DNA of 64,000 bases, taken from positions 1 through 64,000 of the forward strand of contig JAZDCZ010000091.1 of NCBI GenBank assembly GCA_036679605.1, given 5' to 3'. The DNA is from Gemmatimonadota bacterium (GTDB taxonomy: Bacteria > Gemmatimonadota > Gemmatimonadetes > Gemmatimonadales > GWC2-71-9). The notes under the pieces are model-generated. The model did not search any database. It was given only the letters and a program-made list of their open reading frames with translations, and had not been told where the DNA came from. Position numbers and translations under genes: made by a program. Below, in pieces: positions 1 to 24,981 of the stretch (positions are counted from its first letter, which is position 1; each line of letters opens with the position of its first letter).

Positions 1-640
1 GCCCCAGTGGTTTGGGAGCTTGATCCAGGACAAGCGTGATGCTACGGGGTTGATGTACATGCGGAACCGGTATTATGATCCCGGTACCGGTAGATTTACG
101 CAGGAAGACCCGATCGGGCTGGCGGGCGGGCTCAACCTATACGGATTCGCCAACGGGGATCCGATCAACTTCAGTGATCCGTTTGGGCTTCGCGCCTGCC
201 CACCCTGTGCCGGAGTGATGACCGGTGGAGCCATCGGGTCCATCTTTCCGGGTGCTGGGACTGTTGCAGGGGTCGTCGTCGGAGGTGTTGTGGGCACTGC
301 CGCTCTTGCCGGTGGCTATGTCTTTCTCTCTGAAGACGGAAGTGCGGCTGAGGAATCACGGGATGGCTCCCTAGACGAGCTGACGCGTGACGCCGACGGC
401 ACTGTCCGTCCGAACGGGGACATTGAAGTGCAAGGCGGTCGGGAGCGAGCCAAGGAAATATTTGGAAAGCATAATGTGGCCGACAAGCTTAGAATCGTCA
501 GGGATAGGACCGGTGGTGGTCGCGGAGTTGAAGGCAAAACGGGTGACGGTACGCGAATCCGTATTAGGTTCAAGCCTGACGGCTCGACACGAATTCAGGC
601 AGGCGATCAAAAGTTCATCTTCCCAAAACCAATGAATTGA
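1..640 (+). CDS. Rhs/YD-repeat protein, 3' end (core end plus toxin tip CT0); runs in from outside the window
   Basis: Frame is open from the window edge. It contains the Rhs core signature GLMYMRNRYYDPGTGRFTQEDPIGLAGGLNLYGFANGDPINFSDPFGL, then a Gly/Val-rich hydrophobic segment and a basic C-terminal domain (possibly a nuclease, inferred). Confidence 0.92.
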   Translation, partial: PQWFGSLIQDKRDATGLMYMRNRYYDPGTGRFTQEDPIGLAGGLNLYGFANGDPINFSDPFGLRACPPCAGVMTGGAIGSIFPGAGTVAGVVVGGVVGTAALAGGYVFLSEDGSAAEESRDGSLDELTRDADGTVRPNGDIEVQGGRERAKEIFGKHNVADKLRIVRDRTGGGRGVEGKTGDGTRIRIRFKPDGSTRIQAGDQKFIFPKPMN

Positions 641-647
641 CGCGGGG

Positions 648-1250
648 ATGACGATTCCGGTAAGAACTCTCGGTGTGCGCGCGGTCTCTCCACTGGATCA
701 GTTTCCAGAGATCGGGCGGCGTCGGGAGCAGCTCTTGAAGGACGTTTTTCCGACATCGTGCGACCTTGAGTTCTACGCGATCATTACCCAAGTATGCGTC
801 CACGAGCATGAGCGAGCAGAAGTGATAGAGGATTTCGATACGCTCTTTCGGCTCTCTGGTGAACCTACGGGCCGGAACCTCGACCGAACGAGGGCCCACT
901 TGAAGGTCACTGAAGGATCGAAGCGGATCAAACCAGCGGTGGCCACCGAGTTACTGAATTCGATGAGTCCCTCACGACATGTGTTGATTCGTTGCTGGGA
1001 GGATCCGAATTCTTACGTTTGGCAAGTGCCAGGCGAGGCCTTTTTTCGGGCGCGGGACATGCTGAAGGTTTTGCCTCATCCGTTTGGAGAATTCGAGGTA
1101 ACCGATGAAGGCGGTGCCTGGTTCATGCGAATTGTGGATGACGACCCGCTCATCTTTCTTCAGGCCCATTCCAAGCTGGGCCGTCGGCTAATCGACCTGG
1201 CTCCGAGCGAGGTCCTGCACGTCCAACCCAGCATTCGGTACCGTTGGTAA
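648..1250 (+). CDS. Putative immunity protein for CT0
   Basis: Starts 7 bp after the toxin stop; no signal peptide; positional inference. Confidence 0.7.
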   Translation: MTIPVRTLGVRAVSPLDQFPEIGRRREQLLKDVFPTSCDLEFYAIITQVCVHEHERAEVIEDFDTLFRLSGEPTGRNLDRTRAHLKVTEGSKRIKPAVATELLNSMSPSRHVLIRCWEDPNSYVWQVPGEAFFRARDMLKVLPHPFGEFEVTDEGGAWFMRIVDDDPLIFLQAHSKLGRRLIDLAPSEVLHVQPSIRYRW

Positions 1251-1436
1251 CGGTGTTGCCAGTTCCGTAGTCTGGTCTCTTTGCGTGTGATAGCGTGCTC
1301 ATTATCGCATTGTAATGTATCGTGCTTGGATGTTGGGGTGGCACAGTCAGGGGGCTCTGACGTGAGCAGTGACGGGGTGCTTATGCGAGGACCGTCGCCC
1401 GGCAGACCCGAAATGCGTCTTCGACGACGTTCCACC

Positions 1437-1576
1437 CCACTCCCCCCCGAAAGTGCACGTCGGCGATTTTTAGTGCATATTACGATCAAAATCCGAGTGA
1501 GGTGAGCGGCTAAAGGAAGCAACCTCAACTGATTGCGGCGTCGGAGTCGTACCCGAACGCGTCGACCAGGACATAT
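1437..1576 (+). repeat. Conserved 140-bp cassette leader, copy L1
   Basis: CCACTCCCCC..AAGTGCACGTCGGCGATTTTTAGTGCATATTACGATCAAAAT..GAGGTGAGCGGCTAAAGGAAGCAA..CAGGACA; near-identical copies occur downstream. Confidence 0.95.
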
Positions 1577-2146
1577 ACGCAGGAAGACCCGATTGGGCTG
1601 GCCGGTGGGCTCAACCTCTACGGGTTTGCAAACGGGGATCCGATCAACTTCAGTGATCCGTTTGGGCTGTGTCCGGAGGATGTTGGTGGCGACGGAAAGA
1701 CAAGCTCCGTAGATGACTGTTCCGAAGACGTGCAGAATGCGTGGGCAGATGAGCACGTTAAGGTGAGTCCGGGGCACACAACCGACCTTGCTGGAATCGA
1801 TCCAGATTTGTGGAGTGCTGTTGTTCGAACGTCGATGGAACTCAGAGCCGACTTCGGGATATCTGCGGGGAAGGAAGACCGGGGTGGAGCCAGCGCGCAT
1901 AACGGCGGTCGAGCTGTGGACATCAATCGTGTCAATGGAACGCGGCTTCAGGATATGGACGCTGGCGTAGCCGCATCGCTCGGCAATCGTGTTGGGGCTG
2001 GGATCGTGAACCGCGTTGGTGGTCGCGGCATGGAGGTTTTCACGCCGGGTATGGCATTCCGAGTGGATACACGCTTGACACGGCAGTCTAGCTTGGCATT
2101 GCAGGCAAGTCACTTCAACCACGTACACGTGTCTGTCCGTCCATGA
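1577..2146 (+). CDS. Orphan Rhs tip CT1: M15/DD-peptidase-like Zn peptidoglycan peptidase (no evident start codon of its own)
   Basis: Reads TQEDPIGLAGG..SDPFGL|C, then SAHNGGRAVD (H-x6-D) and HFNHVHVS (HxH). Confidence 0.8.
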   Translation, partial: TQEDPIGLAGGLNLYGFANGDPINFSDPFGLCPEDVGGDGKTSSVDDCSEDVQNAWADEHVKVSPGHTTDLAGIDPDLWSAVVRTSMELRADFGISAGKEDRGGASAHNGGRAVDINRVNGTRLQDMDAGVAASLGNRVGAGIVNRVGGRGMEVFTPGMAFRVDTRLTRQSSLALQASHFNHVHVSVRP

Positions 2147-2784
2147 TGGAAGAGGTCGGCATGGCGGTTAATCATATCGATTCTCAGCTGTCCTCATCCA
2201 TGTATCCGGTGTCCGGTGTCCGGTCCATCGTCGGTGGGTGGGGACGGGGTCGATACTGTCTACGGTGTGGACTAGTGTTTGCGGTTGCCGTGGCTATCGC
2301 GTGCGGTGACGGCGAGGAGGACTCTGCGTTCCAACAGTCACGTGAGTCAGAGGCTTCGACTACGGAGGCACCATCAGAGCTAGGCCAGAGCGCCAACCCG
2401 CTGGACTCGCTAATTGAAAACCTCAGGGACCTTCGTGGGTCATTTGTCAACGTAGCACCGGGGAGATGGGACTTCGCTGGTGATCGATCTGCTTTGGTGG
2501 CTTTCGAAGAATTCCGGGACTCGGCTGTTGTTCGGCTCGTGGACTGCCTGGATCGCACCGAACTAGCGGCCGCGACCGTGCAAGAGCAACAAGTACCAAT
2601 GGGGTACATGTGCTACGCTGCATTAGCCCGCGTGGCTTACTACGAGTGGCATCAGTACCAGGACGTGGTCAAAGACCCGTCGTGGCCAGGGGAAGTCGCA
2701 GCCACCGCGAGCGTGGAGGATCTCCGTCAAGCTAAGACGGCTTGGCTCCAGGTAGTGGAAAAGCACCTCTACTTCCTCCATTGA
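2143..2784 (+). CDS. Putative lipoprotein immunity protein for CT1
   Basis: Overlaps the toxin stop; lipobox-like VAVAIAC; true start uncertain. Confidence 0.65.
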   Translation: MMEEVGMAVNHIDSQLSSSMYPVSGVRSIVGGWGRGRYCLRCGLVFAVAVAIACGDGEEDSAFQQSRESEASTTEAPSELGQSANPLDSLIENLRDLRGSFVNVAPGRWDFAGDRSALVAFEEFRDSAVVRLVDCLDRTELAAATVQEQQVPMGYMCYAALARVAYYEWHQYQDVVKDPSWPGEVAATASVEDLRQAKTAWLQVVEKHLYFLH

Positions 2785-2825
2785 CCGTGAACCCGCAACG
2801 TTAGTTTCGAAGACGACGGCAACTC

Positions 2826-3509
2826 ATGACACTCACTCGGATCGCGGCGACCGTCGTAGTAGCACACTCCTGTGCATCGTTCGCCTTCGCGCACCAGGTC
2901 AGTCCATTCACGTGTTTGAGTGCCGGTGATTCCTTGCCGTCGGTGGGGGCGTATGGTCTTTTTGTAGACCGGGGTCGGCTCCTGTGCCTGGCACCCGATG
3001 AGGATGCAGATGGGACACTTGTTCCCTGCCTGCGTATTGGTACACTTCACGTCGGTCAATCACGCACGGATGTCGAAGCACATATTGGCAAGCCGTGGCG
3101 CTCGGTGCACCCACGCCTCCCAGGATTGACCACACGCGCATACCTGGTCTCTCACGACTCCACCGCCAACAGAATTGCGTACTACCTTGTCGAATACGAG
3201 CGTGTCGGTGAAGAGGAGCTGGTCTTCGCTGTCCAGCTCACCGGTGATCGTCTCGACAGCTTGGCGGCCAGTTTCTCTTGTTTGAATCTTGCGGCTGTTG
3301 AGGCGGACGTGCGCCGTCAACTCGGGGCGCCTTCGGGCATGAGTCCGTTTAGGGCAGCTGACGCGGGTGTCGCTGGGGTCGTGTGGTCCTACGAGCCGCT
3401 GCCGATCTCGATCGAGGTCGTCGACGGGAAAGTGTACTCGTTTCGGGTGTGGCGGCCCGGCGATGTCCCGGCGCGGCGGCGTACGCTCACGCTGCTTGAG
3501 AAGCCGTAA
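2826..3509 (+). CDS. Secreted hypothetical protein (possible second or orphan immunity protein)
   Basis: 227 aa with a signal-peptide-like N-terminus. Confidence 0.6.
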   Translation: MTLTRIAATVVVAHSCASFAFAHQVSPFTCLSAGDSLPSVGAYGLFVDRGRLLCLAPDEDADGTLVPCLRIGTLHVGQSRTDVEAHIGKPWRSVHPRLPGLTTRAYLVSHDSTANRIAYYLVEYERVGEEELVFAVQLTGDRLDSLAASFSCLNLAAVEADVRRQLGAPSGMSPFRAADAGVAGVVWSYEPLPISIEVVDGKVYSFRVWRPGDVPARRRTLTLLEKP

Positions 3510-3529
3510 CTCTAATCTCACCTGTTGAA

Positions 3530-3564
3530 GGACAAGGAGCCCGGCTCCGGTCGGGCTCTTGTCC
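3530..3564. terminator. Stem-loop between convergent genes
   Basis: GGACAAG-GAGCCCG..CGGGCTC-TTGTCC inverted repeat. Confidence 0.55.
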
Positions 3565-3569
3565 CCGGC

Positions 3570-3971
3570 CTACGCCGAGCGCCGTCGCGATTGGACGAGC
3601 GCATCCACAAACTTGAGGACTGCGCGCTGATCCGCGGGCGGGAGTTCTTCGATGCGCTGGAGCCGTTTGAGGAGTCGGGCGCTTTTTTTGCCCCGTCGGT
3701 CGGCCGGCGGTTTCACTGCCAGCAACTCATCGGTGGATACGTCCAACGCCTGGGCGAGGGCCGCGAGGATCGGCCCGGGCGGGCTCGCCTCATCTCGCTC
3801 ATAGTACGCCACCATCCGGTTGGAGAGGCCGAGGCGCTCGCCCAACTCCTCTTGGGTGAGGCCGCGGCTTTGGCGGAACTCTGCGAGTCGCGGCCCGAAG
3901 CCGCCCTCAGTGCTCGGTTGTTTCCGTCGTCGGTTCGCCACCACGGCACTCCAGTCGGTGATCAGGTGCAC
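3570..3971 (-). CDS. XRE-family HTH regulator of the element
   Basis: RLAEFRQSRGLTQEELGERLGLSNRMVAYYE HTH; divergent from the primase. Confidence 0.9.
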   Translation of the reverse strand: MHLITDWSAVVANRRRKQPSTEGGFGPRLAEFRQSRGLTQEELGERLGLSNRMVAYYERDEASPPGPILAALAQALDVSTDELLAVKPPADRRGKKSARLLKRLQRIEELPPADQRAVLKFVDALVQSRRRSA

Positions 3972-4113
3972 GGCATCAACTCCCAGTTAAGGTAGGGCCG
4001 GTTCCAGAGGCGGCTCACAACTTCTTGCCTGGAACTTACAAAAAGTGTAATATTCTGGCCACCACTTGTTTGAGTGGGATTTGGGCCCCTTACCCCCTTG
4101 ACAGGATTTTGGA

Positions 4114-4482
4114 ATGGCGCGGATTCCAGAAGCTGAGCTGGCGAGGATCAAGCAGCAGGTCTCGCTGCTGGAGCGTGTGCGAGCGGAGGGAGTGGAGCTT
4201 AGGCGCCACGGTGCTGACTGGATCGGCTTGTGCCCGTTCCACGAGGATGTGAATCCGAGCCTGGTGATCTCGCCGGCGAAGAATCTGTGGCACTGTTTGG
4301 GTGCGTGCCAGGTGGGCGGGAGTGTGATCGACTGGGTGATGCGGTGTGAGGGAGTGAGTTTTCGGCACGCGGTGGAGCTGTTGCGGCACGAGCTGCCCGA
4401 TGTGAGTGCTGCCGGCGTGCGTTTCGATTCTACGCTGGACGACGCGGCACTACTCGGTGCCGTTGGTCACCTACTACCATGA
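4114..4482 (+). CDS. CHC2 zinc-finger N-terminus of the DNA primase (frameshifted from the rest)
   Basis: CPFHED..WHCLGAC motif; continues in another frame near 4460-4470. Confidence 0.85.
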   Translation: MARIPEAELARIKQQVSLLERVRAEGVELRRHGADWIGLCPFHEDVNPSLVISPAKNLWHCLGACQVGGSVIDWVMRCEGVSFRHAVELLRHELPDVSAAGVRFDSTLDDAALLGAVGHLLP

Positions 4483-7048
4483 GACGCTGCTCGGCAGTGC
4501 CGAGGCGATCGCGTATCTCGAGAAGCGGGGTCTCGATCACCGGGCGGCGATCGAACAGTTCCGGCTGGGCTATGCCAACCGCACGCTCGCCTACCGGCTG
4601 CCGGACGGCAAGCGGGGCCGTGTGCTGCGGGAGCGGCTGCAGCGGCTCGGTATCTTCCGGGCGAGCGGTCACGAGCACCTAAACGGCTCGCTGGTGGTGC
4701 CGGTCTTCGATAGCCAAGGAAACGTCTCCGAACTCTATGGCCGGAAGATCAGGGATGATTTGCGGGCGGGCACGCCGGTGCATCTTTATCTGCCGGGACC
4801 GCATCGTGGTGTGTGGAACCTTCAGGCCTTGAAGGAATCGAAAGAGATCATTCTCTGCGAAGCGCTGCTCGACGCGCTGACCTTCTGGTGCGCGGGCTAC
4901 GCCCACGTGACGGCGAGCTACGGGATCGAGGGATTTACGGCGGAGCAGCTCGAGGCTTTTAAGCGCTACGGCACTGAGCGGGTCTTGATCGCCTACGATC
5001 GGGACGAGGCGGGCGATCGAGCGGCGGAGCAGCTGGCTAAGCGTCTCACCAAAGCAGGCATCCGCTGTTACCGGGTGCAGTTTCCGAGGGGGCTGGATGC
5101 GAATGCGTACGCGCTGGAGCATGGGCCGGCGGAGCAGAGCTTAGGACTCGCGATCCGGAGCGCGGTGTTTCTGGGCCAGGGCGCGGCGGCCCCCGCGGTC
5201 CCGGCGGTCCCGCCACCCATGGCGGCTAAAGAGAAAAAGCCAGTTGCTTCTTCTTTAGCCGCTGATTCTGCTCCCTCACGGCCGATTGTTTCTCCTGAGC
5301 CTCAAGCGCCACCGCCGGATGTCCCGGTGCGATTGGACGGGGATGACGTACACGTCGAACTGGGCGATCGTCGCTACCGGATCCGGGGGCTCCGGAAAAA
5401 CAGGAGTCCGGATTTGATGAAGCTGAACTTGCTGGTGCGTAGGGGCGAGGGTGTGCACGTGGACACGCTGGACCTCTATTCGGCGCGGCCGCGGGCCGCG
5501 TTTGCGAAACAGGCCGCGGCGGAACTCAGCCTCAAGCCCGAGGTGCTGGCGAAAGATCTGGGCACTGTGCTGCTCCGGTGTGAGGCACTCCAGGGGGAGG
5601 AGAGCTTTGGCACCCGGGCGCAACCCGAGGAGGCGGTGACGCTCTCCCCCGCCGAGCGACAGGCTGCTCTCTCACTGCTCAAGGATCCACACCTGTTAGA
5701 CCGGATTCTCAGCGACTTCGACCGTGTGGGTGTGGTGGGTGAGGAGACGAACAAGCTGGTGGGCTACTTGGCGGCCTTGTCCAGGAAGCTGCCGGAGCCT
5801 CTGGCGGTGATCGTGCAATCGGCGTCGGCCGCGGGGAAGACGTCGTTGATGGAGGCGGTGCTGGCCCTGGTGCCGCCCGAGGAACGGGTGCAGTACTCGG
5901 CGGTGACGGGCCAGGCGCTCTTCTACATGAACGACACCGATTTGAAGCACAAGATCTTGAGTGTGGTGGAAGAAGAGGGCGCCGAGCGGGCGAGCTATGC
6001 CTTGAAGGTATTGCAGAGCGAGGGCGAACTGACGATTGCGTCGACCGGGAAAGATCCCCAGACGGGCAAGCTCGTGACCCATGCGTACCGGGTCGAGGGG
6101 CCGGTGATGATCTTCTTGACGACGACGGCGGTCGACGTGGATGAGGAGCTGTTAAACCGGGCGCTCGTGCTCAGCGTGGACGAGGACCGGGCGCAGACCA
6201 GGGCGATCCACGTGAGGCAGCGGGAGCGTCGCACGCTGGAGGGTCTGTTAGCCAGAGCCGAGCGAACCGAGATCCTGACACTGCATCGAAACGCCCAGCG
6301 GCTCTTGGAGCCGGTGGCGGTGGTAAACCCCTACGCCCCGCAGCTCACGTTTCTGGATGTGAAGACGCGTACGCGTCGCGATCGCGAGAAGTATCTGACG
6401 CTGATCGAGACGGTGGCCCTGTTGCACCAGCATCAACGTGAGAAGCAGACCATCGAGCGTGACGGTACCGCACTCAGCTACATCGAGGTCACAAAGCCAG
6501 ACATCGCGATCGCCAACCGCTTAGCGGCCCGGGTGCTGGGCCACTCACTGGACGAGCTGCCGCCACAGACCCGGGGCTTTCTCACCAAACTGGACGACTG
6601 GATCGCGTCCCAGTGTGAGCAGCGCCAAGTGGAGCGCGGTGCGATCCGTTTCCTTGCGAGAGACGCAAGAGAGATAACTGGCTTAGGAGCCACGCAGGTG
6701 AAGCTGCACTTGAGACGCTTGATCGATCTCGAGTACATCCTGGTCCACCGTGGCGAGCGCGGCCACGGTGTGGCCTACGAACTGCTGTACGACGGCGACG
6801 GAGAGGACGGGAAGCGCTTTCTGCCCGGTCTGCTCGATGTGGAGACTCTAAAGGAGCCGTACGATCCAGGGCGGTCGGGGGGAAACCACAAGCGGTCGGG
6901 GGTCGGTCGGCCCCGGGTCGGGCCCAAGTCGGGGGGAGGCCGGACCGATGAAACAGCACCTATGGCCAATGCTCACAGCCTCTTGCCCCTTGAGCGGTCG
7001 GATTGCTCAGAAAGCACTTCTGGGGCGGCAGAAGTGGTGCAGTCGTAG
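4406..7048 (+). CDS. Toprim primase fused to a P-loop ATPase/helicase (C-terminal part)
   Basis: Toprim motifs CEALLDAL and YDRDEAG; Walker A SASAAGKT; Walker B-like VVEEE; Pro-rich linker. Confidence 0.85.
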   Translation: MLPACVSILRWTTRHYSVPLVTYYHETLLGSAEAIAYLEKRGLDHRAAIEQFRLGYANRTLAYRLPDGKRGRVLRERLQRLGIFRASGHEHLNGSLVVPVFDSQGNVSELYGRKIRDDLRAGTPVHLYLPGPHRGVWNLQALKESKEIILCEALLDALTFWCAGYAHVTASYGIEGFTAEQLEAFKRYGTERVLIAYDRDEAGDRAAEQLAKRLTKAGIRCYRVQFPRGLDANAYALEHGPAEQSLGLAIRSAVFLGQGAAAPAVPAVPPPMAAKEKKPVASSLAADSAPSRPIVSPEPQAPPPDVPVRLDGDDVHVELGDRRYRIRGLRKNRSPDLMKLNLLVRRGEGVHVDTLDLYSARPRAAFAKQAAAELSLKPEVLAKDLGTVLLRCEALQGEESFGTRAQPEEAVTLSPAERQAALSLLKDPHLLDRILSDFDRVGVVGEETNKLVGYLAALSRKLPEPLAVIVQSASAAGKTSLMEAVLALVPPEERVQYSAVTGQALFYMNDTDLKHKILSVVEEEGAERASYALKVLQSEGELTIASTGKDPQTGKLVTHAYRVEGPVMIFLTTTAVDVDEELLNRALVLSVDEDRAQTRAIHVRQRERRTLEGLLARAERTEILTLHRNAQRLLEPVAVVNPYAPQLTFLDVKTRTRRDREKYLTLIETVALLHQHQREKQTIERDGTALSYIEVTKPDIAIANRLAARVLGHSLDELPPQTRGFLTKLDDWIASQCEQRQVERGAIRFLARDAREITGLGATQVKLHLRRLIDLEYILVHRGERGHGVAYELLYDGDGEDGKRFLPGLLDVETLKEPYDPGRSGGNHKRSGVGRPRVGPKSGGGRTDETAPMANAHSLLPLERSDCSESTSGAAEVVQS

Positions 7049-7056
7049 TCGTAGCG

Positions 7057-8067: not shown

Positions 8068-8085
8068 CATGTGCCCTTGGGCCCA

Positions 8086-8933: not shown

Positions 8934-8940
8934 CTCCGCC

Positions 8941-17717: not shown

Positions 17718-17836
17718 GCCGCGGATACTAACGCGGATTGACGCGGGTGGGCCCGCGGATGATTACACTGATGGCCGCAGATAGGAACGCGGATTAACAC
17801 GGATGGGGCCGCGGATGATTATGCCGATAGCCGCGC
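17718..17836. repeat. Cluster of short (A/C)CGCGGAT repeats
   Basis: About nine degenerate units, the same as those flanking the GxxExxY gene. Confidence 0.8.
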
Positions 17837-17909
17837 ATGTAGGTGAGGTCTTGTCTCAGGTGCGCCGCGAGCTGTCACTCAGGATGAACCTCCTGAACTG
17901 AAGCCGTTC

Positions 17910-18049
17910 CCACTCCCCCCCGAAAGTGCACGTCGGCGATTTTCAGTGCATATTACGATCAATATTCGAGTGAGGTGAGCGGCTAAAGGAAGCAAGCGCA
18001 ACTGATTGCGCCGCTCTGATCGTAGCCGAAAGCGTCGACCAGGACAGTT
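17910..18049 (+). repeat. Cassette leader L7
   Basis: 140-bp near-copy of L1. Confidence 0.95.
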
Positions 18050-19317: not shown

Positions 19318-19377
19318 GTTCGATGCCGGAGCTATGTGAGCACATCCCGGCTTCGCTGGGCTGTGTGTTTTTGGTAG

Positions 19378-19442
19378 CTACGCCGTGCGCCGTCGTGACT
19401 CGACGAGTGCGTCGACGAACTTGAGGACAGCTCGCTGATCTG
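19378..19442 (-). pseudogene. 65-bp 3' remnant of the element XRE
   Basis: Encodes DQRAVLKFVDALVESRRRTA*. Confidence 0.85.
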
Positions 19443-19443
19443 A

Positions 19444-20107
19444 GAGCCGCGGATAAGAACGCGGATAGACGCGGATCTTTCGTACCTGCCCGTGGGTTGC
19501 ACGACATTACCAGCCTCTGGAACTCTGCGCGTCTCCCAAAATTGAGCCGCAGATAATTACGCTGATGCACGCGGATGTTTCGTACCTGGCTGCGGGTTGC
19601 GCGACATTACCAGCCTCCGGAACTCTGCACGTCTCCCAAAATTGAGCAATAAGCCAACTTCGAGTTTCGTGGCGCGCAAATAGTTGAGCACTTGCGCCGT
19701 GTGGGAAGGCTCTAGCTGTGCGAGCGCTTTGATCTCGACCAGTACCTTGTGTTCCACAATGAGGTCTGTGCGAAATCGAGCGATTGGAAGGCCGCGATAA
19801 CGGACTTCGGCTGGGGTTTCGGTGTCGACGAGAAGACTGGAGGCCCGGAGATCGTGTGCGAGGGCCCGCTGATAGACTCGCTCGGCGAAGCCTCGGCCGA
19901 GTGTGTTGAAGACCTCATAGAATGATCCGATTATATTGTGGGTGATGGCGGCGTGGGGCAAGTTGGGGTGCAGGGTTGGCGGTTCGTTCATGGACCGAAT
20001 ATGGTGCCCTCTGCGCGAATTGCGGTATCGATTTTTTGCGCAGTGAAGCCTTTTCCCGCATTGGAGTGCGGTTAATCCGCGTTAATCCGCGCACCAATCC
20101 GTGGCCC
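19444..20107. mobile_element. GxxExxY gene bounded by inverted GCGGAT repeat ends
   Basis: Left end GAGCCGCGGATAAGAACGCGGATAGACGCGGAT; right end ATCCGCGTTAATCCGCGCACCAATCCGTGGCCC. Confidence 0.6.
19557..19991 (-). CDS. GxxExxY protein (PD-(D/E)xK nuclease fold)
   Basis: LGRGFAERVY, RTDLIVE..VEIK, QVLNYL and GLLLNFG motifs. Confidence 0.92.
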   Translation of the reverse strand: MNEPPTLHPNLPHAAITHNIIGSFYEVFNTLGRGFAERVYQRALAHDLRASSLLVDTETPAEVRYRGLPIARFRTDLIVEHKVLVEIKALAQLEPSHTAQVLNYLRATKLEVGLLLNFGRRAEFRRLVMSRNPQPGTKHPRASA

Positions 20108-20108
20108 G

Positions 20109-20672
20109 GAAGACCCGATCGGGCTGGCCGGTGGGCTCAACCTGTATGGGTTTGCAAATGGGGATCCGGTTAATTTCAGTGATCCGTTTGGGTTGTGTAA
20201 GGACAAGGACGGTGAAGAGCTGCCGGCGGATCAGTGTCGAGACGCAACCAAGCAGGAAGGCAAAGCGACCTACACAGCTGCGGTCGCAATGGGTTCGTGG
20301 ACGTGGACGATGGGGAGAGAGGGTGAGCCGGCAAAGGACGTGGCGAACCAGGTTGGCGACTGCACCGACTACTGCGAGTCTGCTCACCGAGGCGCGGGAC
20401 TTCCCGGCTTGGATCCGCGGCCAGCGACATCCGGGTTCGCCTCTTCCTCGGACTACCGCGCTTTGGGATCGGAAGCCCCCCAAGCTGGCGATGTGATCGT
20501 TCAGGGTGGGCATGCCGGCATTTTCAGCGGGCAGTACGATAGTCAGGACAGACCACTCGGAATCCAGAACGGCGGCAGTGGAACGAAGGTGATTCCCTGG
20601 GGCCCCAATGTCTCTGGACTCGCCAAGGTGAACCCCGTGTTCTACCGGCGCCAGGTTCCAAAGAACCCCTAG
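20109..20672 (+). CDS. Orphan Rhs tip CT7: NlpC/P60-like cysteine peptidase/amidase
   Basis: EDPIGLAGG..; GDCTDY and GDVIVQGGHAGIF give a Cys-His dyad. Confidence 0.82.
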   Translation, partial: EDPIGLAGGLNLYGFANGDPVNFSDPFGLCKDKDGEELPADQCRDATKQEGKATYTAAVAMGSWTWTMGREGEPAKDVANQVGDCTDYCESAHRGAGLPGLDPRPATSGFASSSDYRALGSEAPQAGDVIVQGGHAGIFSGQYDSQDRPLGIQNGGSGTKVIPWGPNVSGLAKVNPVFYRRQVPKNP

Positions 20673-21233: not shown

Positions 21234-21605
21234 CTACGCAGAGCGCCGTCGTGATTCGACGAGGGCGTCGACGAACTTGAGGACGGCGCGTTGATCTGAC
21301 TGGGGCAGTTTTTCTACCTGCTGGATCCGTTTCATGAGCCTCGCCTTTTTCGGTGAGGCTTTTGGTTTCATGGGTTTCAATCCAAGTAGCCCGTCGGCGG
21401 AAACCTTGAGCGCGATTGCCAGGTCGGCGAGCAACGCGCCGGGCGGTTGAGCATCCTGTGTTTCGTAGTAGGCGATGACCCGCTGTGACACATCGACCAT
21501 GTGACCCAACTCGGCCTGTGTAACGTCCCGGGTCCGCCGGAGGTCTGCCAACCGCGGGCCAAAGCCTTCGATGGTCCGCTGCTTCATCTGCAACACCTCG
21601 CTCAT
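21234..21605 (-). CDS. XRE regulator, intact paralogue of 3570-3971
   Basis: EGFGPRLADLRR..TQAELG..DQRAVLKFVDALVESRRRSA. Confidence 0.88.
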   Translation of the reverse strand: MSEVLQMKQRTIEGFGPRLADLRRTRDVTQAELGHMVDVSQRVIAYYETQDAQPPGALLADLAIALKVSADGLLGLKPMKPKASPKKARLMKRIQQVEKLPQSDQRAVLKFVDALVESRRRSA

Positions 21606-21720
21606 GTCGTGACCTCCGAAGGGTAAGGGTGGTATCCGGTAACGGTGCGTCTGACTTGGACAGTTGGCGATACAGCCTGCGTGCCTTGGCAATGGAGGGA
21701 GCCGAGCTTAGACTGATACC

Positions 21721-21957
21721 ATGCCGACGGTCCTCCGGACTGGCCCTTACCGATTCTTCTTCTATTCCGCCGATCGGGAGGAGCCGCCGCATGTGCACGT
21801 CGAGCGCGACGACTGCCGGGCGAAATTCTGGCTTGACACGGTCCGGCTGCACGACAGTACGGCGTTCCAACGCCCCGAACTTGGGCGCCTGGAGGGGATA
21901 GTGCAGAGGCATCACGACGAGTTGCTGAGAGCATGGCATGACTTCTTCGCCGCTTGA
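21721..21957 (+). CDS. DUF4160 protein (putative TA component)
   Basis: YRFFFYSAD.EPPHVHV..AKFWL. Confidence 0.88.
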   Translation: MPTVLRTGPYRFFFYSADREEPPHVHVERDDCRAKFWLDTVRLHDSTAFQRPELGRLEGIVQRHHDELLRAWHDFFAA

Positions 21958-22243
21958 ACTCCGGTCAGGGGTGGCTCAGACCGTCACGGTGACCGACGAG
22001 GCCCTGGTCGTCGACTTGGTGGATGGGCGAACTGTCTCTGTGCCGCTCATGTGGTTCCCCCGCCTCCTGCATGGCACACCTGCCGAGCGCGGCGAGTGGC
22101 GCTTGATCGGGCGCGGCGAGGGCATTCACTGGCAACGACTCGACGAGGATATCAGCGTCGACAGTCTGCTGGCGGGGCGCGCGTCTGGCGAGGCTCAGGC
22201 TTCGCTTCAACGTTGGCTCGAGAACCGCAAGGCTGCTGGCTGA
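21938..22243 (+). CDS. DUF2442 protein (putative TA component)
   Basis: DGRTVSVPL.WFPRL..GIHW..LDEDISV. Confidence 0.88.
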   Translation: MTSSPLELRSGVAQTVTVTDEALVVDLVDGRTVSVPLMWFPRLLHGTPAERGEWRLIGRGEGIHWQRLDEDISVDSLLAGRASGEAQASLQRWLENRKAAG

Positions 22244-22292
22244 AGTTACGTTAACTGGGGCCGCGGATGATCGATCTGGGGCCTGGGGGCAC
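22243..22292 (+). repeat. Copy of the right half of the post-recombinase site (8237 onward)
   Basis: 34-bp identity: AAGTTACGTTAACTGGGGCCGCGGATGATCGATC. Confidence 0.9.
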
Positions 22293-22457
22293 CGAACGAC
22301 GACTCGGTGCGTGACTGACTGCGTTTGGGCATTGCGGTGGGGTGCCGGTGGCCAGAGTGAACTCAAGTAGAGCGCTCTCGCAAGTGCAGCTGGTGGATCG
22401 CGGCTAAAGCCGCACGAGCAAGAGAAGATTCCGTCCCCACCACCCGCGAAGCGCGCC

Positions 22458-22513
22458 CCACTCCCCCTCAAGAGTGCACGTCGGCGATTTTCAGTGCATA
22501 TTACGATCAAAAC
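22458..22513 (+). repeat. Cassette leader L8 (5' part only)
   Basis: Truncated at the same point as L6, then TGTGCCGCGGATA. Confidence 0.9.
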
Positions 22514-22516: not shown

Positions 22517-22666
22517 GCCGCGGATAAGAACGCGGATAGACGCGGACAACAGCTCTGGTCGACCGTAGGCTCCGCCCTGGCGGCCTGGCTTGCTGTAGGC
22601 CTGCTGCATGCACGTAGCAGGTTTACGGAGTCGATTCGCGTTAAATCCGCGCAACAATCCGCGGCC
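22517..22666. mobile_element. Gene-less GCGGAT-ended element (MITE-like)
   Basis: GCCGCGGAT..ATCCGCGGC inverted ends; interior similar to 22708-22941. Confidence 0.55.
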
Positions 22667-22667
22667 T

Positions 22668-22707
22668 GTATTATGATCCGGCTACCGGTAGATTTACGCA
22701 GGAAGAC
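22668..22707 (+). pseudogene. Rhs core fragment YYDPATGRFTQED
   Basis: Near-identical to about 70-108; separated from CT8 by an insertion. Confidence 0.85.
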
Positions 22708-22941
22708 GAGCCGCGGATAGCAACGCGGATAGACGCGGATAACAACTCTGGTCGGCCGAAGACTCCGCCCTGGCGGCCTGGATTGTTGTAGTTCTGCGGC
22801 ATGCACGTAGCAGCCACGGATGATGGCGCGGATTGACAGGGCAGCGCGAGGACTTTCGTTCAGTTGTACTGGGAGCCGTGTGCTTTTCGCGTGCGAGATG
22901 GCCCGAAATCCGCGTTCATCCGCGCAACAGATCCGCGGCCC
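22708..22941. mobile_element. 234-bp GCGGAT-ended insertion in the Rhs core, flanked by GGAAGAC direct repeats
   Basis: GGAAGAC at 22701-22707 and 22942-22948; inverted ends. Confidence 0.7.
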
Positions 22942-22942
22942 G

Positions 22943-23509
22943 GAAGACCCGATCGGGCTGGCCGGCGGGCTCAACCTGTATGGGTTTGCCAACGGGGATC
23001 CGGTTAATTTCAGTGATCCGTTTGGGCTGAAAGCGTGTGATCCGCCGGACGATCCAAGCTGCACGGGTGGTGAGGCTTCGACGGCTTCCGAAGCAGCTGG
23101 TAAGGTCGTCGACTTCCTTGAATCCCTTCCTGGAAAGGCCGTTTCACTCCTTGCTGAAGGGGTGGGTGCGTTCGGCCGGATTCTAAGCTCGGTGGTTCCT
23201 GGGGTTGGGAACGCGGCGGCTGCGGCGACTGGCATCGATCCTGAAGGGAACCGCCTAGGTAATCTAGCCCGAGCAGCAGCTGTGGGAGCTGCTGTCACGG
23301 AGGTCGTACTTACTAGACCCACGCCCGGCGGCGACGGAGGGATTTCTCGACATGTCCTAGAAAAGGTGGGAGGTCGAACTAACCGCGTTATCCATCAGGT
23401 CGAACGAGCTGGAGGGATCGTGCACCAACATACGACTCACGTCGGTAAGTATGGGGGATTAAGGCGCTTTCCAGACAAGTGGACGGGAATACCAACCATC
23501 AAGAGGTGA
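22943..23509 (+). CDS. Orphan Rhs tip CT8: Ala/Gly-rich segment plus His-rich basic domain (possible nuclease)
   Basis: EDPIGLAGG..SDPFGL|KAC; GGDGGISRH..HQV..HQH..H. Confidence 0.78.
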   Translation, partial: EDPIGLAGGLNLYGFANGDPVNFSDPFGLKACDPPDDPSCTGGEASTASEAAGKVVDFLESLPGKAVSLLAEGVGAFGRILSSVVPGVGNAAAAATGIDPEGNRLGNLARAAAVGAAVTEVVLTRPTPGGDGGISRHVLEKVGGRTNRVIHQVERAGGIVHQHTTHVGKYGGLRRFPDKWTGIPTIKR

Positions 23510-23513
23510 CGAT

Positions 23514-23810
23514 ATGGGATCGGATCTCGAACCGTTCATCGTCGACGTCATAGAGATGAGCCAGCGAGTGATTAGTGAATTCCGATCAACGCTGGCAGCA
23601 CTCGGTTTGGACGCAGACGTGCCTCAAGTGAGCCGTTCTCCCCATGGCGTAGAGATCGTCTCCTATGTGCGCCGCCAGGGAGATATTGAGGATGCCATTG
23701 AGTTTGCGGCGGTCGAGAATGACCGGGTCACTTACTCCGTGAGAGAACTAGAGAAGTGGCTTCGTAACGCGCTGGACGATGTCGTCCGCAGAGCGGTTGA
23801 GGGAGCGTGA
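23514..23810 (+). CDS. Acidic cytoplasmic immunity protein for CT8
   Basis: Starts 4 bp after the toxin stop; no signal peptide. Confidence 0.7.
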   Translation: MGSDLEPFIVDVIEMSQRVISEFRSTLAALGLDADVPQVSRSPHGVEIVSYVRRQGDIEDAIEFAAVENDRVTYSVRELEKWLRNALDDVVRRAVEGA

Positions 23811-23833: not shown

Positions 23834-23909
23834 GGCTCTGGGCCTGGGATCACAAAGATCGACTCTCGGGTTAGCTCTACTAATCTGGGCAATCCCAGTA
23901 CACGCGCGA
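23834..23909 (+). repeat. Isolated copy of an internal piece of CT3 (11653-11728)
   Basis: 71 of 76 bases identical by manual alignment. Confidence 0.9.
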
Positions 23910-24172
23910 AGGCCGCAGTGCGATAGCCACCGAGCGGTCTGCCAGCGCCAGTTTCTATGGGGCGGATGAGAAGCTGATGTTTCAGCAGTCGAATAACGAC
24001 TCACTGGACGTGTAGGGTACTCCTCAGCAGGCGGCGTGGTGCGTATCAGGAGTACTAGTACGAGGCGAGCCGCGGGGCCCGAAGCCTTCCTCGCGCTTCA
24101 TCGTTCGTCGGCTAGCCCAGTCGCCCCGTTGCTTTGATGAACCGGACTTGACCACGTCGCCTCCCCATGTGA

Positions 24173-24186
24173 TCTTACCAGTAAGA
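24173..24186. promoter_or_regulatory. Candidate AbrB-antitoxin operator
   Basis: TCTTAC-CA-GTAAGA palindrome upstream of the gene. Confidence 0.5.
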
Positions 24187-24207
24187 ATACGAACGAGGAA
24201 ACCGGCT

Positions 24208-24471
24208 ATGGCATCGGTAGCGACGACAAGACTGTCCTCCAAGGGACAGGTGGTCATCCCTGAGGAGATCCGGCGGCGTCTGGGCCTGGAGACCGGTGCC
24301 CAGTTCGTCGTAGTGGGGGAGGGGGACGTTGTGGTACTGAAGGCGGTGCAGCCGCCGTCGATGCGGCAGTTCGACGACGTGATGCGGGCGGCGCGTAAGG
24401 CGGCCCGCCGCGCGTGTATGAAGCGTCGCGATGTTGCCGATGCGGTTCGCAAGGCGCGACGCTCGACGTGA
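24208..24471 (+). CDS. AbrB/MazE-family antitoxin
   Basis: LSSKGQVVIPEEIRRRLGL. Confidence 0.9.
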   Translation: MASVATTRLSSKGQVVIPEEIRRRLGLETGAQFVVVGEGDVVVLKAVQPPSMRQFDDVMRAARKAARRACMKRRDVADAVRKARRST

Positions 24472-24872
24472 GGGTAGTAATCGACACCAACGTACTGGTG
24501 TCGGGCGTTTTCTTCGGAGGTGTGCCGGGTCGGATTCTCGAAGCGTGGCGAGACGGGAAACTCGCACTCGTTGTGTCGCCTGCGATCCTCGAGGAATACG
24601 AGCGTGTGGGCGCTGTGCTTGCCGTGCAGTATGAAGGAGCGGAACTGGAGCCGTTTCTCGCGCTTGTCGCTGTGCACGCGGATGTCGTCCAAGCCGCTCC
24701 TCTGGCGGAGGGTCTCTGCGCCGATCCCGATGACGACATGTTTATGGCGTGTGCCCTAGCCGGTGCGGCGACCGTTGTGGTGTCGGGGGATAAGGCGCTT
24801 CGGAGGGTATCTGGCTGGAACGGGATCGAGGTGCTTGCTCCGAGAGCATTCGCCGACCGCTACCTGAGCTGA
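24468..24872 (+). CDS. PIN-family toxin
   Basis: VVIDTNVLVS, DPDDDMF and VSGDKAL motifs. Confidence 0.9.
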   Translation: MRVVIDTNVLVSGVFFGGVPGRILEAWRDGKLALVVSPAILEEYERVGAVLAVQYEGAELEPFLALVAVHADVVQAAPLAEGLCADPDDDMFMACALAGAATVVVSGDKALRRVSGWNGIEVLAPRAFADRYLS

Positions 24873-24951
24873 TGGGTCAGCTAGGCAGCACCTCAATCCG
24901 TCGAGCACCATTGCGAAGCGGCCGCAACGGCGGGCTGGACCTATATGGGTT

Positions 24952-24981
24952 GGTGGGTTCGATTCCCACACGCTCCCGCCA
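24952..24981 (+). other. 3' fragment of a tRNA (Sec-like); probable att site ending the island
   Basis: GGTGGGTTCGATTCCCACACGCTCCCGCCA gives a T-arm, acceptor strand and GCCA end; the matching 5' strand GGGAGCG is not found just upstream. Confidence 0.65.

Follow-up and report, generated by a model that had tools for sequence, protein, structure and literature searches.

An Rhs toxin-tip array in a Gemmatimonadota genome and a candidate family of integrative tip-swapping elements

The window, by which is meant the whole 64,000-nt stretch of Gemmatimonadota DNA that was analysed, opens on an array built around a 99-nt repeat encoding the end of an Rhs core, (T)QEDPIGLAGGLNLYGFANGDPxNFSDPFGL. 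Its nine copies, 79-100% identical to the reference copy, start at 92, 1571, 9075, 11326, 13723, 15931, 18044, 20097 and 22931; each opens a distinct frame of 184-232 aa and leads into a tip of its own, with a small ORF after it, in agreement with the nine-tip repeating unit claimed in a preliminary description of this DNA. The NCBIfam model TIGR03696 (Rhs_assc_core) matches all eight tips submitted out of the nine, tip 5 having been left out of this comparison. Six of the nine core ends are preceded by a 135-nt leader, earlier put at 140 bp, and leader and core end together form a 237-nt repeat whose six copies (87-100% identical) start with leader copies 1 to 6 at 1436-1570, 8940-9074, 11191-11325, 13588-13722, 15796-15930 and 17909-18043 (forward strand, repeat comparison). 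Seven of the eight orphan frames have no ATG, GTG or TTG ahead of the 3' limit of the core end, and tip 9 is an orphan frame with an ATG at 22820, located in an inserted repeat element. The contig (C426) and the window begin together, 90 nt 5' of core end 1, and the long rhs gene mentioned in the preliminary description is absent from the window and from this contig. The repeat-array anatomy itself is confirmed as real.

All features of the array lie on the forward strand unless stated. Core end 1, open at the contig start, and tip 1 share one frame (2-640; TIGR03696 positions 25-76 of 76, E 3.8e-20), followed by a candidate immunity ORF (648-1250) recognized by position and codon GC pattern, for which a family search found no match; no XRE gene, toxin-antitoxin (TA) pair, primase or integrase lies behind this tip, which is the closest to the Rhs body. 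The next unit is the intact one, and includes core end 2 (1571-1669) and tip 2 in a frame at 1514-2146 with no start codon before 1730, two ORFs without family match (2143-2784 and 2826-3509) that are candidate immunity or cargo genes, an XRE-type repressor on the reverse strand (3570-3971; HTH_3, E 2.8e-15, with a weak RstR-like match), a replication gene in two frames (4114-7048), a XerC-like tyrosine recombinase (7003-8067), and a TA pair composed of a 72-aa ORF and a PIN/VapC protein (8330-8933, family search). The earlier claim that a primase-helicase and a recombinase reside in one unit is thereby upheld. In the replication gene, a primase of DnaG type is joined to an MCM-like helicase; a +1 shift near 4470 divides the primase, with the DnaG Zn ribbon at 4114-4482 and the Toprim primase and MCM-like AAA+ helicase at 4406-7048. 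It matches the DnaG structure 2au3 (E 8.5e-27), and the model of its C-terminal part (pLDDT 81.5), which resembles MCM helicases most closely in fold comparison (E 1e-9, TM 0.45-0.51), points to a predicted MCM-like AAA+ helicase. The recombinase is intact, carries catalytic-type motifs on sequence inspection, and scores as XerC-like (Phage_integrase, E 6.8e-39; NF002331, 394.6 bits, cutoff 371).

The remaining units are compact, and their spacing is regular (2251, 2397, 2208, 2113 and 2053 nt). Frames and family searches place core end 3 and tip 3 at 9057-9611 with an ORF at 9612-9944, and core end 4 and tip 4 at 11269-11892 with an ORF at 11889-12614. Core end 5 leads into a lysozyme tip (13705-14277; Phage_lysozyme, E 1.3e-30) followed by an LprI lysozyme-inhibitor ORF (14274-14615; E 2.3e-12), core end 6 into tip 6 (15874-16491; weak metallopeptidase match) and an ORF ending at 17066, and core end 7 into a Peptidase_M23 tip (18026-18628; Pfam, frame) and an ORF ending at 19317. 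Core end 8 and tip 8 (20076-20672, with an ORF reaching 21212) and core end 9 and tip 9 (22811-23509, with an ORF at 23514-23810) complete the series. Seven TA-like pairs occupy fixed slots, tips 1 and 7 having none; after the PIN pair of the intact unit come, in order and by Pfam, Gp49/HigB-like with HTH_37 (10442-11183), MNT nucleotidyltransferase with HepT (12889-13528), Phd/YefM with YoeB (15218-15773), an 80-aa ORF with HicA (17134-17621), DUF4160 with DUF2442, a putative TA pair (21721-22243), and a MazE/AbrB-type protein with PIN_3 at the array end (24148-24872). Slots are likewise fixed for five XRE genes or remnants, all on the reverse strand, as had been described: in addition to the repressor of the intact unit, there is an intact gene in a compact unit (21234-21692, Pfam), a broken one (9975-10397, with similarity at 10035-10244), a remnant at 14766-15011 (both by sequence comparison) and a 67-nt 3' remnant (19377-19443, repeat family D5).

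Inserted repeats interrupt the array at several points. An element with CGCGGAT-rich ends (19444-20107), bearing a GxxExxY/PDDEXK_3 gene on the reverse strand (19557-19991), takes the place of the TA pair and leader and of the opening bases of core end 8. The leader is missing from tips 8 and 9 because such a repeat element abuts GGAAGACCCG. Two extra partial leaders were found by repeat comparison: one, at 17659-17714, is cut and followed by CGCGGAT-type repeats (to 17829), and the other, at 22457-22512, precedes two MITE-like copies (approximately 22517-22664 and 22708-22941) between which lies an Rhs core fragment, YYDPATGRFTQED (22665-22707). A 76-nt remnant (23834-23909, repeat family D10) is 93% identical to part of tip 4.

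The association of XRE gene, primase/helicase and recombinase is not peculiar to this locus. A search found 462 primase/helicase relatives, and the best 79 loci, which were read, belong to Acidobacteriota, Beta- and Gammaproteobacteria, Planctomycetota, Gemmatimonadota and others; the module is widespread across bacterial phyla. An integrase lies just downstream of the primase/helicase in 64 of these 79 loci and a reversed XRE gene upstream in 61. In 49, the module has an Rhs core end on its own strand no more than 4 kb away, in keeping with the linkage to rhs put forward for testing, and all 98 core-end hits in the 79 loci share the orientation of the module. At least one core end is present in 13 of the 16 loci that have both flanks, and where 2 kb or more of sequence continues beyond the integrase (37 loci), a core end follows in 28, the median distance being 895 nt; the window's own genome holds 34 core-end hits in 6.7 Mb. 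No core end was found within 4 kb in 30 of the 79 relatives, many of which are short contigs, although L075, L107 and L110 among them have both flanks. Since the search employed primase/helicase peptides only, the linkage to rhs is not a search artefact. The leader is kept across families, and is linked to a recombinase or a TA pair in L086, L098, L076, G045 and G001, the first four providing the leader-recombinase link that had been anticipated. The G045 array also carries Mutator and rve transposases.

Circular forms were found among the relatives. Three metagenomic contigs (L063, L071 and L088), all of which carry leader-type sequence, a core end, a tip and an immunity gene, close on themselves inside unique genes, and the 11,289-bp circular plasmid NZ_CP072857.1 of a cultured Lonsdalea populi strain is made up solely of such units, with no Rhs body. 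Together with a tip of G045 present in two settings, once on a full rhs gene and once behind a leader (identity 99.8% over 2359 nt), these forms provide, in relatives, the circles and alternative fusions that the preliminary description had called for. For the window element, no circle, alternative fusion or excised cassette was found in the single sequencing run, which is kept as contigs; every joint in that run is accounted for by repeats or other copies, and read depth over the element (approximately 14-17) equals that of the flanks (12.6-15). The locus could also be read as an ordinary orphan Rhs array generated by homologous C-terminal displacement, where an unrelated integrative element and unrelated TA genes landed by chance. 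Tip exchange through homologous recombination is an established process, as are arrays of orphan Rhs tips (reportedly Koskiniemi 2014), and islands commonly gather TA genes and IS elements, as the transposases of G045 illustrate. This reading is nevertheless disfavoured, and must be considered highly improbable, in view of the linkage and co-orientation of module and core ends across phyla, the presence of core end and tip on the circles, the fixed XRE and TA slots, and the conservation of the leader.

Integrated copies of the module are bracketed by core ends. In 11 loci a core end flanks the module on either side, with 5.7-8.4 kb separating the two. In five of the 11, the left-hand core end closes a long Rhs frame (at least 712 aa in L044, at least 964 in L097, at least 722 in L098, 626 in L109 and 396 in L041), while the right core end has only 21-66 aa upstream and represents a stranded tip. 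This is the layout that would result if a new tip were placed on the long gene and the old one pushed downstream. Ralstonia Po82 displays the same bracketed layout, with upstream frames of 1570 aa vs 9 aa; no empty-site strain was found, and the 6 records in which the displaced Ralstonia tip was found complete are all among those with a primase/helicase match.

The junction itself is fixed. Homology to the rhs core begins at one place, within approximately 4 nt 5' of ACGCAG, in all six leaders of the window, in the 14 leader-preceded tips of G045 examined and in all ten G037 orphans, despite left flanks that differ between lineages; the ten G037 cassettes have only an 8-nt motif in common at the junction. 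The arms of an inverted repeat proposed at this site pair imperfectly, at 2-6 of 8 positions. These data bear on the possibility that the element is a plasmid-like replicon with a primase/helicase, TA addiction and Xer-like multimer resolution, which carries an orphan Rhs tip by chance and enters by a RecA-dependent single crossover at the core end, producing the same final layout. Such a replicon would suit a recombinase of the XerC subfamily, the TA pair in the slot behind it, the free 11.3-kb plasmid of Lonsdalea, and the long similar repeats of the window (243 nt, 92%) and L098 (97 nt, 100%). However, exact runs common to both bracketing core ends reach at most 9-23 nt in all but one of the 11 loci, and 11 nt in Po82. 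Identities of this length are short for RecA-dependent exchange and ordinary for the core of a tyrosine recombinase site, an argument that loses weight if the bracketing repeats drifted apart once the element had integrated, as they may have done. In addition, one junction base is employed in three lineages with unrelated left flanks, and in the two informative G045 pairs the left edge of the core end is where identity between the copies begins. Entry as a plasmid is, on balance, unlikely.

Integration by a dedicated tip-swapping element is the favoured explanation, and it is fairly likely that the 3' side of rhs has been struck repeatedly by such elements. The interpretation offered in the preliminary description is supported, none of the three contrary outcomes it had named (relatives mostly away from rhs, no circles or alternative fusions, no leader-recombinase link elsewhere) having been found. 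The element would be small, about 6-8 kb, and its intact form would encompass a divergent XRE repressor, the primase-MCM-like helicase gene, the XerC-like recombinase and often a TA pair, followed by the non-coding leader, approximately 100 nt of core-end coding sequence in frame with a start-less tip, and the immunity gene. It is probably self-replicating, and the primase-helicase could serve replication of the circular form. The recombinase, including that of the window, would join the leader/core-end junction of the circle to the same codons (Thr-Gln-Glu-Asp-Pro...) of the chromosomal rhs, such that the Rhs body reads through into the incoming tip, and the earlier tip and its immunity gene are left downstream, behind the leader and without a start codon. 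Units would stack up through successive insertions; their replication and recombination genes would then be lost, unless the units were compact cassettes from the outset, and each would retain a tip, an immunity gene, an XRE remnant, a TA pair and a leader. The TA pairs may act as stabilisers, and the retained immunity genes may be expressed. The suggestion of one TA pair per unit holds in the window and in the sister species G001, but among 29 relatives only 8 conform to it, and the elements of G045 do not.

The earlier view that each unit is a decayed copy of the full element is uncertain. Among themselves, the XRE sequences of compact units share 80-83% identity, against only 55-71% with the XRE of the intact unit, and by this comparison they belong to a different lineage. 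Instead of being decayed copies, the compact units may be cassettes of a non-autonomous kind, which evokes an integron-like scheme, compatible with the favoured explanation, in which a recombinase acting in trans excises units of 2.1-2.4 kb between adjacent junctions and re-inserts them at rhs, the array being a reservoir of silent tips. The regular spacing noted above agrees with this scheme, as do a compact unit of approximately 2.1 kb directly behind an Rhs core fragment in G001 (L030), the ten minimal cassettes of G037, with a lone recombinase at the array end and no primase, and the occurrence of the same cassettes at two places in G045. Nevertheless, the single run, kept as contigs, showed no excised cassette, NCBIfam integron-integrase models score 111.7 vs a cutoff of 265, no conserved attC-like hairpin was found, and compact units could also have arisen by deletion of primase and integrase from full elements. 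The scheme is a tentative one, less likely than not.

Several known systems share traits with the tip-swapping element proposed here. Islands and phages that target tRNA genes, and e14 and phage 21 in icd, insert at the 3' end of a gene and supply a replacement end; as here, attP copies the target 3' end, the gene stays intact, and direct repeats bracket the element. In the present case, however, the replacement end is a new toxin domain with an immunity gene, which changes the function of the gene, and displaced ends pile up. Chromosomal integrons with TA cassettes and Prochlorococcus tycheposons, some of which carry a primase-helicase, are arrays of promoter-less cassettes or decayed elements that a tyrosine recombinase builds, also with interspersed TA genes. 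They differ from this array, which has no integron-integrase signature or attC-type hairpin, and which targets a toxin gene, protein-coding and joined in frame, rather than attI or a tRNA gene.

The rAID of Bacteroidales, an acquired interbacterial defence associated with a recombinase, was reportedly described by Ross in 2019. In the available part of PMC12247911, rAID is characterized by a tyrosine recombinase, an array of short immunity-type genes that share one orientation, and intergenic motifs that are conserved, much as here, and its biogenesis is stated as unknown; it is depicted as an immunity-only array of low-GC Bacteroidales, unattached to a toxin gene. The present array, in contrast, holds whole tips and core ends at an rhs locus, a replication module and TA pairs, at 57-63% GC. 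Xer-type recombinases are found next to arrays of polyimmunity or Rhs immunity genes (Zhang 2012, PMC3482391; reportedly also Martinkus 2026, Curr Biol), dif sites in Neisseria vgrG clusters (PMC10210955), and integrase-like genes near rhs in bee-gut bacteria (PMC5727410). The available portions of these reports present a XerC/D-like recombinase beside toxin/immunity cassettes, suggested to help gather them, as in our array, and describe no circular primase/helicase/recombinase element with an in-frame core end and tip. Our literature search likewise found no description of this element in the texts available, Martinkus 2026 being a possible overlap.

Rhs C-terminal displacement resembles the present system in its conserved core end, its variable tips and immunity genes, the silent old tips downstream and the ability of a tip to move onto the full-length gene. 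Such displacement, with its orphan tip arrays, is said to have been described by Jackson in 2009, Poole in 2011 and Koskiniemi in 2014. Those arrays are attributed to homologous recombination and retain core fragments of variable length, whereas here the units, set behind a conserved leader, each begin at one fixed base and hold XRE and TA genes, and a dedicated primase/helicase-recombinase element travels with the tip.

Between positions 92 and 23029 of the window, the opening 64 kb of contig C426 in a metagenome bin of 434 contigs (genome G000), a 99-nt repeat occurs nine times, in six cases as the right part of a 237-nt repeat. It encodes (T)QEDPIGLAGGLNLYGFANGDPxNFSDPFGL and, judged by its sequence, is the end of the Rhs core; the NCBIfam model TIGR03696 matches all eight of the tips submitted (of nine in the window), over model positions 25-76 of 76 in tip 1 and from positions 35 to 48 through 76 in the orphan tips. 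As in Rhs/YD polymorphic toxin loci with orphan tips, this motif stands directly 5' of the variable C-terminal domain, with nine distinct sequences downstream, and the frame continues past each copy into a differing stretch of 184-232 aa. Three tips bear Pfam names (a phage-type lysozyme, an M23 peptidase and, weakly, a metallopeptidase), and all nine are followed by an ORF that is a candidate immunity gene, one of them of a telling family, the LprI lysozyme inhibitor that follows the lysozyme tip. In seven of the eight orphan tips (tips 2-9), no ATG, GTG or TTG lies ahead of the 3' limit of the core end, so that these tips look like silent cassettes. A 76-nt piece at 23834-23909, located after the last immunity-type ORF, matches the central part of tip 4 (11653-11728) at 93% identity and is the remnant of a further tip, and two genes with BMC domains (bacterial microcompartment shell) lie just past the array, at 26353-27174.

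The array had been described as lying downstream of a long rhs gene. Additional Rhs core does precede core end 1, but the contig begins 90 nt before that core end, and the gene itself, which would lie beyond the contig start, had thus been deduced and not seen. Other contigs of this genome do carry full-length rhs frames, and five further small contigs of the bin begin in the same Rhs core, with other tips. It is of note that the bin, with 6.7 Mb and 6.3% contamination, as compared to 3.7 Mb for a genus mate, may hold more than one strain; one of its contigs, C149, carries at 100-682 a second, broken copy of the primase/helicase gene (83% amino acid identity) behind another tip.

The order of elements between successive tips is fixed, running from the tip through a small ORF, a reversed XRE gene, a pair of toxin-antitoxin (TA) type and a leader to the next core end, and confirms, over nine core ends with constant slots, the repeating unit of tip, reversed XRE, TA pair and leader that had been noticed earlier. 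The reversed XRE gene is intact at 3570-3971 and 21234-21692, with remnants at three other places. The seven TA-type pairs in the array come from seven different families: both partners are recognised in Gp49/HTH_37, MNT/HepT, Phd/YoeB and MazE/PIN_3, the toxin alone is recognised in the ?/PIN and ?/HicA pairs, and DUF4160/DUF2442 is not an established TA pair. Being small, adjacent or overlapping genes, such pairs would qualify as type II (and VII) TA systems, and by analogy with plasmids and chromosomal integrons they may stabilise the element or the array.

In the intact unit (1571-9074), the XRE gene and the PIN pair are separated by two additional genes, a replication gene and one for a recombinase. 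In the preliminary description each of the other units had been taken as a decayed copy of such a 7.5-kb element. However, the compact units have an even length of 2.05-2.4 kb, and their XRE genes are 80-83% identical among themselves but only 55-71% identical to that of the intact unit, so that these units may represent compact cassettes that are non-autonomous, and not the remains of the larger element. The sister species G001 has a compact unit of equal composition (L030, about 2.1 kb) behind an Rhs core fragment, and there a TA gene directly precedes all three leader copies that have upstream sequence. The presence of one TA pair per unit holds less widely: among 29 relatives, 8 have a pair behind the recombinase when plus-strand ORFs are considered, as does locus L076, but a pair is absent between integrase and leader in the elements of genome G045, and is thus common without being general. 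In three proteobacterial loci (L044, L072 and L078), a small DUF7706 protein (E 1e-23 to 3e-26) is encoded between the integrase and the next core end, in the slot that the TA pair holds in other elements.

The first 350 residues of the replication gene product correspond to a DnaG-type primase (PDB 2au3, E 8.5e-27), and the model predicted for its last 441 residues, with 56 natural relatives as input (pLDDT 81.5, pTM 0.81), is closest to MCM helicases (Foldseek E about 1e-9, TM 0.45-0.51), which justifies the name ‘primase-helicase’ at the level of the fold. A primase domain and a hexameric-helicase-type ATPase are joined in one gene, as in the replication modules of plasmids and satellites; no origin of replication was identified, and a search of a phage collection yielded weak matches to the primase N-terminus only, with no sign of a phage or satellite relative. 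G045 and Ralstonia carry the gene as one ORF of 1036-1059 aa, and it also has a single frame in locus L040 and in most of the remaining relatives; in the window it is split into two frames by one extra base just before CTACTACCA (about 4465-4475). The independent relative L086 (68-78% amino acid identity) carries the same +1 shift at the same place (about 2497-2505), and both primase ORFs are otherwise intact; instead of a recent break, the shift may be one that is tolerated or programmed. With NF002331, the recombinase reaches a score of 394.6 (XerC subfamily; curated cutoff 371), its catalytic domain is complete (Phage_integrase positions 2-169 of 172, E 6.8e-39), and its sequence contains RRNEL, HLFRH and LYTRV, which we take to be the catalytic motifs. 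A perfect palindrome, TTAACGTAAC-AA-GTTACGTTAA, is located at about 8215-8245, some 150 nt 3' of the recombinase gene, and its right half and the next 30 nt recur after the DUF2442 gene of a different unit (22243-22288; 93% over 46 nt).

The combination of reversed XRE gene, primase/helicase and recombinase, here referred to as the module, recurs in relatives. A search in one genome per species, with primase/helicase peptides as sole query, returned 462 stretches encoding a relative, of which the best 79 loci were read; these come from Acidobacteriota, Beta- and Gammaproteobacteria, Planctomycetota, Gemmatimonadota and others. The recombinase lies just downstream in 64 of the 79 and a reversed XRE gene upstream in 61, and most loci that lack either are on contigs that end too early. 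Core ends were detected by a strict pattern in 7 loci and by a looser pattern near the module in 39, and a profile built from the looser hits finds 98 matches in 52 loci, every one of them on the strand of the module. Forty-nine of the 79 loci have a core end within 4 kb of the module; among the 37 loci that offer 2 kb or more after the recombinase, 28 have one on that side (median distance 895 nt), and among the 33 that offer 2.5 kb or more before the XRE gene, 19 have one there. At least one core end is present in 13 of the 16 loci with both flanks, the profile finding none in L075, L107 and L110. For comparison, the Rhs-rich genome of the window holds 34 core-end matches in 6.7 Mb. The same architecture is found in genome sequences of cultured Janthinobacterium and Undibacterium strains, related modules occur in Massilia isolates, and the idea can consequently be tested at the bench. 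Linkage of relatives to rhs, proposed earlier as a check, is thus borne out by proximity and common orientation.

Two core ends enclose the module in 11 loci, at a distance of 5.7-8.4 kb from each other (7504 nt in the window). Direct repeats bracket the element in the window, where 1431-1672 matches 8935-9176 at 91.8%, in these 11 loci and in Ralstonia solanacearum Po82. The left core end closes a long Rhs frame in five of the 11 (at least 712 aa open before it in L044, at least 964 in L097, at least 722 in L098, 626 in L109 and 396 in L041), and the right core ends of the same five have 21-66 aa open upstream; on the megaplasmid of Po82, the corresponding figures are 1570 and 9 aa. A Janthinobacterium lividum plasmid has the same bracketed layout, with immunity-type genes and a primase fragment further down. 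According to the proposed mechanism, the element would insert at the core end, place its own tip on the rhs gene and strand the old tip, and the bracketed layout is what would be expected from such events. No strain with an empty site was found; the displaced Ralstonia tip was detected in full in six records only, all of which also match the primase/helicase, which precludes an attB comparison in Ralstonia.

The point at which exchange would occur can be read from where homology to the rhs core begins in the orphan copies, which is a single place, at most about 4 nt 5' of ACGCAG (Thr-Gln codons). This start is fixed in three lineages with differing left flanks: in all six leaders of the window, in the 14 leader-preceded tips examined in G045, and in 10 of 10 orphans of genome G037, which have no leader and share only GCCCCGCC before ACGCAG. 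Two pairs in G045 have the same sharp onset of identity, at TTCACGCA: in one, a whole element and its tip are found twice, once after a leader and once after a short piece of core, with 99.7% identity over 6784 nt, and in the other, the same tip is carried by a full rhs gene and by a leader-preceded copy (99.8% over 2359 nt). A further mode in which cassettes are shuffled would be compatible with a recombinase-driven element, and we consider this addition possible though less likely than not. The longest exact run common to the two bracketing core ends is 9-23 nt in 10 of the 11 loci and 11 nt in Po82, lengths that are short for RecA-dependent exchange and ordinary for the core site of a tyrosine recombinase. 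The short runs could alternatively stem from later divergence of the repeats, in which case the same element might have entered rhs by homologous recombination; taken together, we regard this route as unlikely, and favor an integrative element that is probably driven by its recombinase and targets the rhs core end. An imperfect inverted repeat across the junction was considered as the core site of the recombinase, and with 2-6 of 8 positions complementary is retained as a weak lead only.

Two arrays in relatives differ in their content. That of G037 (L021 and L022; G037:C2:578000-594000) consists of 10 minimal orphan cassettes without leader, 1-2.5 kb apart (most 1.0-1.3 kb), each of which opens with GCCCCGCC|ACGCAG; a lone recombinase (45% identical), without primase, stands at the far end, the nearest full rhs gene lies at a distance of 10 kb on the opposite strand, and the layout resembles that of recombinase-associated immunity arrays (rAID). 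In the G045 array (L023-L025), the series of orphan cassettes is interrupted by inserted transposase genes of the Mutator family and of rve type, and a second type of junction starts at ...LKDATGQIYQRNRYYD, 60 nt further into the core.

Circular forms were sought both among relatives and in the sequencing run of the window. Five whole contigs have identical ends of 99-127 nt. In L046 the overlap is the core end itself and in L095 it lies within the leader region, and both prove nothing; L063, L071 and L088 (7.6-7.9 kb) break inside unique genes or unique DNA and are therefore circles or tandem copies. The order in L071 is recombinase, antitoxin-like ORF, PIN toxin, non-Rhs sequence, core end, tip, small ORF, XRE and primase, and L088 has HicA in the slot of PIN. 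A plasmid of Lonsdalea populi N-5-1 (L119, NZ_CP072857.1), complete and circular with 11,289 bp, consists of one full and one truncated unit and nothing else: of its two tips, one bears the annotation DNA/RNA non-specific endonuclease and has an NTF2-fold immunity protein behind it, and the second is an HNH endonuclease; DinJ/RelE comes after XerC, SymE-type genes stand beside the XRE genes, and with at most 10 aa open before both core ends the plasmid carries no Rhs body. Circles and alternative fusions, the latter represented by the G045 tip pair, are hence found in relatives. The sole run with the window (X1) consists of Logan contigs, in which rare forms are invisible, and no circle or excision joint could be called in it; joints such as 12000->1433 and 11246->70 are explained by array copies further down, 1674->5661, which matches C149, by a related contig of the bin, and the rest by a high-copy repeat at 8190-8277. 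The depth of the element equals that of its flanks in X1, and tip 1, which adjoins Rhs core, has no element body behind it.

The leader is a non-coding stretch of 135 nt that abuts the next core end, and within the genome of the window it occurs in this array only. BLAST detects it in 4 of 60 relatives, namely at four places in G001 (same genus), in G048 and G056 (another family) and in G015, an unpublished genome on which no conclusion rests; a profile search adds L086, L098 and L076 and, for its 3' part, G045. Its position is always after the recombinase or TA pair and directly 5' of a core end, so that the linkage to the recombinase claimed from the window extends to these profile matches. 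An alignment of 22 copies reveals conserved blocks (AAAGTGCACGTC, TACGA and GCGGCTAAAG); as a best guess, the leader may contain binding sites for the recombinase or the XRE protein. Other roles fared poorly: RNAalifold finds no common fold among the 22 leaders (3 pairs, -0.64 kcal/mol), leaving a structured RNA unsupported; the blocks are, by eye, unlike sigma-70 hexamers, as a promoter would require; and a translation start is disfavored by the lack of an in-frame ATG, GTG or TTG and by an in-frame TAG in three of six copies. A hairpin around AAAGTGCACGTC can be seen by eye in G045, L098, G048 and G056, and shows up weakly in the copies of the window.

The leader is missing before tips 8 and 9, the frames of which open with ...IRGPEDP. 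Inspection of the DNA attributes the missing leaders to a repeat element that terminates in iterated CGCGGAT words, with GAGCCGCGGATAAGAACGCGGATAGACGCGGAT at the left end and its inverse at the right; in core ends 8 and 9, the sequence adjoining the right end is GGAAGACCCG. The element is complete at 19444-20107, where it contains a GxxExxY/PDDEXK_3 gene. Its shorter copies resemble MITEs, two of them at about 22517-22664 and 22708-22941, and others lie at 17718-17829 and 8237-8282; the leader and the core-end junction are the sites that the copies occupy. The left end truncates two partial leaders (17659-17714 and 22457-22512) at the identical base, and GGAAGAC flanks one copy on both sides. 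An Rhs core fragment (YYDPATGRFTQED) between the two MITE-like copies indicates that tip 9 was once joined to a longer stretch of core. In the whole genome, GCCGCGGAT is found 132 times, where about 51 occurrences would be expected.

The model in which a mobile element delivers a tip to the rhs gene and displaces the old one downstream thus holds, on comparative data, at each of the three points by which the preliminary description had proposed to judge it (linkage to rhs, circles or fusions, and linkage of leader and recombinase). The acquisition of Rhs tips and the downstream pile-up of old ones form a long-described pattern for which we know of no dedicated machinery; this locus and its relatives suggest a testable vehicle, a small element with a tip, an immunity gene, its own recombinase and a replication gene, aimed at a toxin gene. 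A broader reading, which we advance tentatively and hold to be less than even in likelihood, would join these observations into a self-replicating ‘tip-swapper’ family across many phyla that acts as a general engine of Rhs C-terminal displacement, with conserved core-end codons as attachment site and the toxin-delivery scaffold of the host as expression platform for the element's toxin, its stacked remains being integron-like, so that a recombinase acting in trans could re-seat any silent cassette, with its immunity gene and TA pair, on the rhs gene. If the vehicle proposed here is real, it would explain orphan arrays in many phyla, would tie interbacterial weapons to selfish spread, with carriers killing non-carriers and loss of the element being costly, and may bear on how recombinase-associated immunity arrays are built in gut bacteria. 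The interest is high because testable machinery is offered for the turnover of Rhs tips across phyla.

Recombinases have been noted beside related loci, and the available text of the sources cited here describes polyimmunity loci that ‘in several cases’ adjoin XerC/D genes (PMC3482391), integrase-like genes with a putative role near rhs genes of bee-gut bacteria (PMC5727410) and dif sites in Neisseria vgrG clusters (PMC10210955). Searches of the literature returned no account of a primase/helicase-recombinase element with a core end and tip, with the proviso that Martinkus et al. 2026 may overlap. The window array differs from integrons, as its recombinase reaches 111.7 bits against a cutoff of 265 for TIGR02249, and no conserved attC-type fold was found among 22 leaders (3 predicted pairs). 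The defining features of a rAID, according to the available text of PMC12247911, are a tyrosine recombinase, arrayed orphan immunity genes and conserved intergenic motifs, and how such loci arise is described there as an open question. The window array likewise has a tyrosine recombinase, co-oriented short immunity-type genes and a conserved intergenic motif; by contrast, GC values along the array are 54-65%, where the rAID criterion for genes is below 41%. The rAID criteria also include a homologue of the B. fragilis rAID recombinase, and the comparison here covers description and GC. The element as a whole resembles two known kinds, the integrative elements that replace the end of a gene and the recombinase-associated arrays of toxin and immunity genes.
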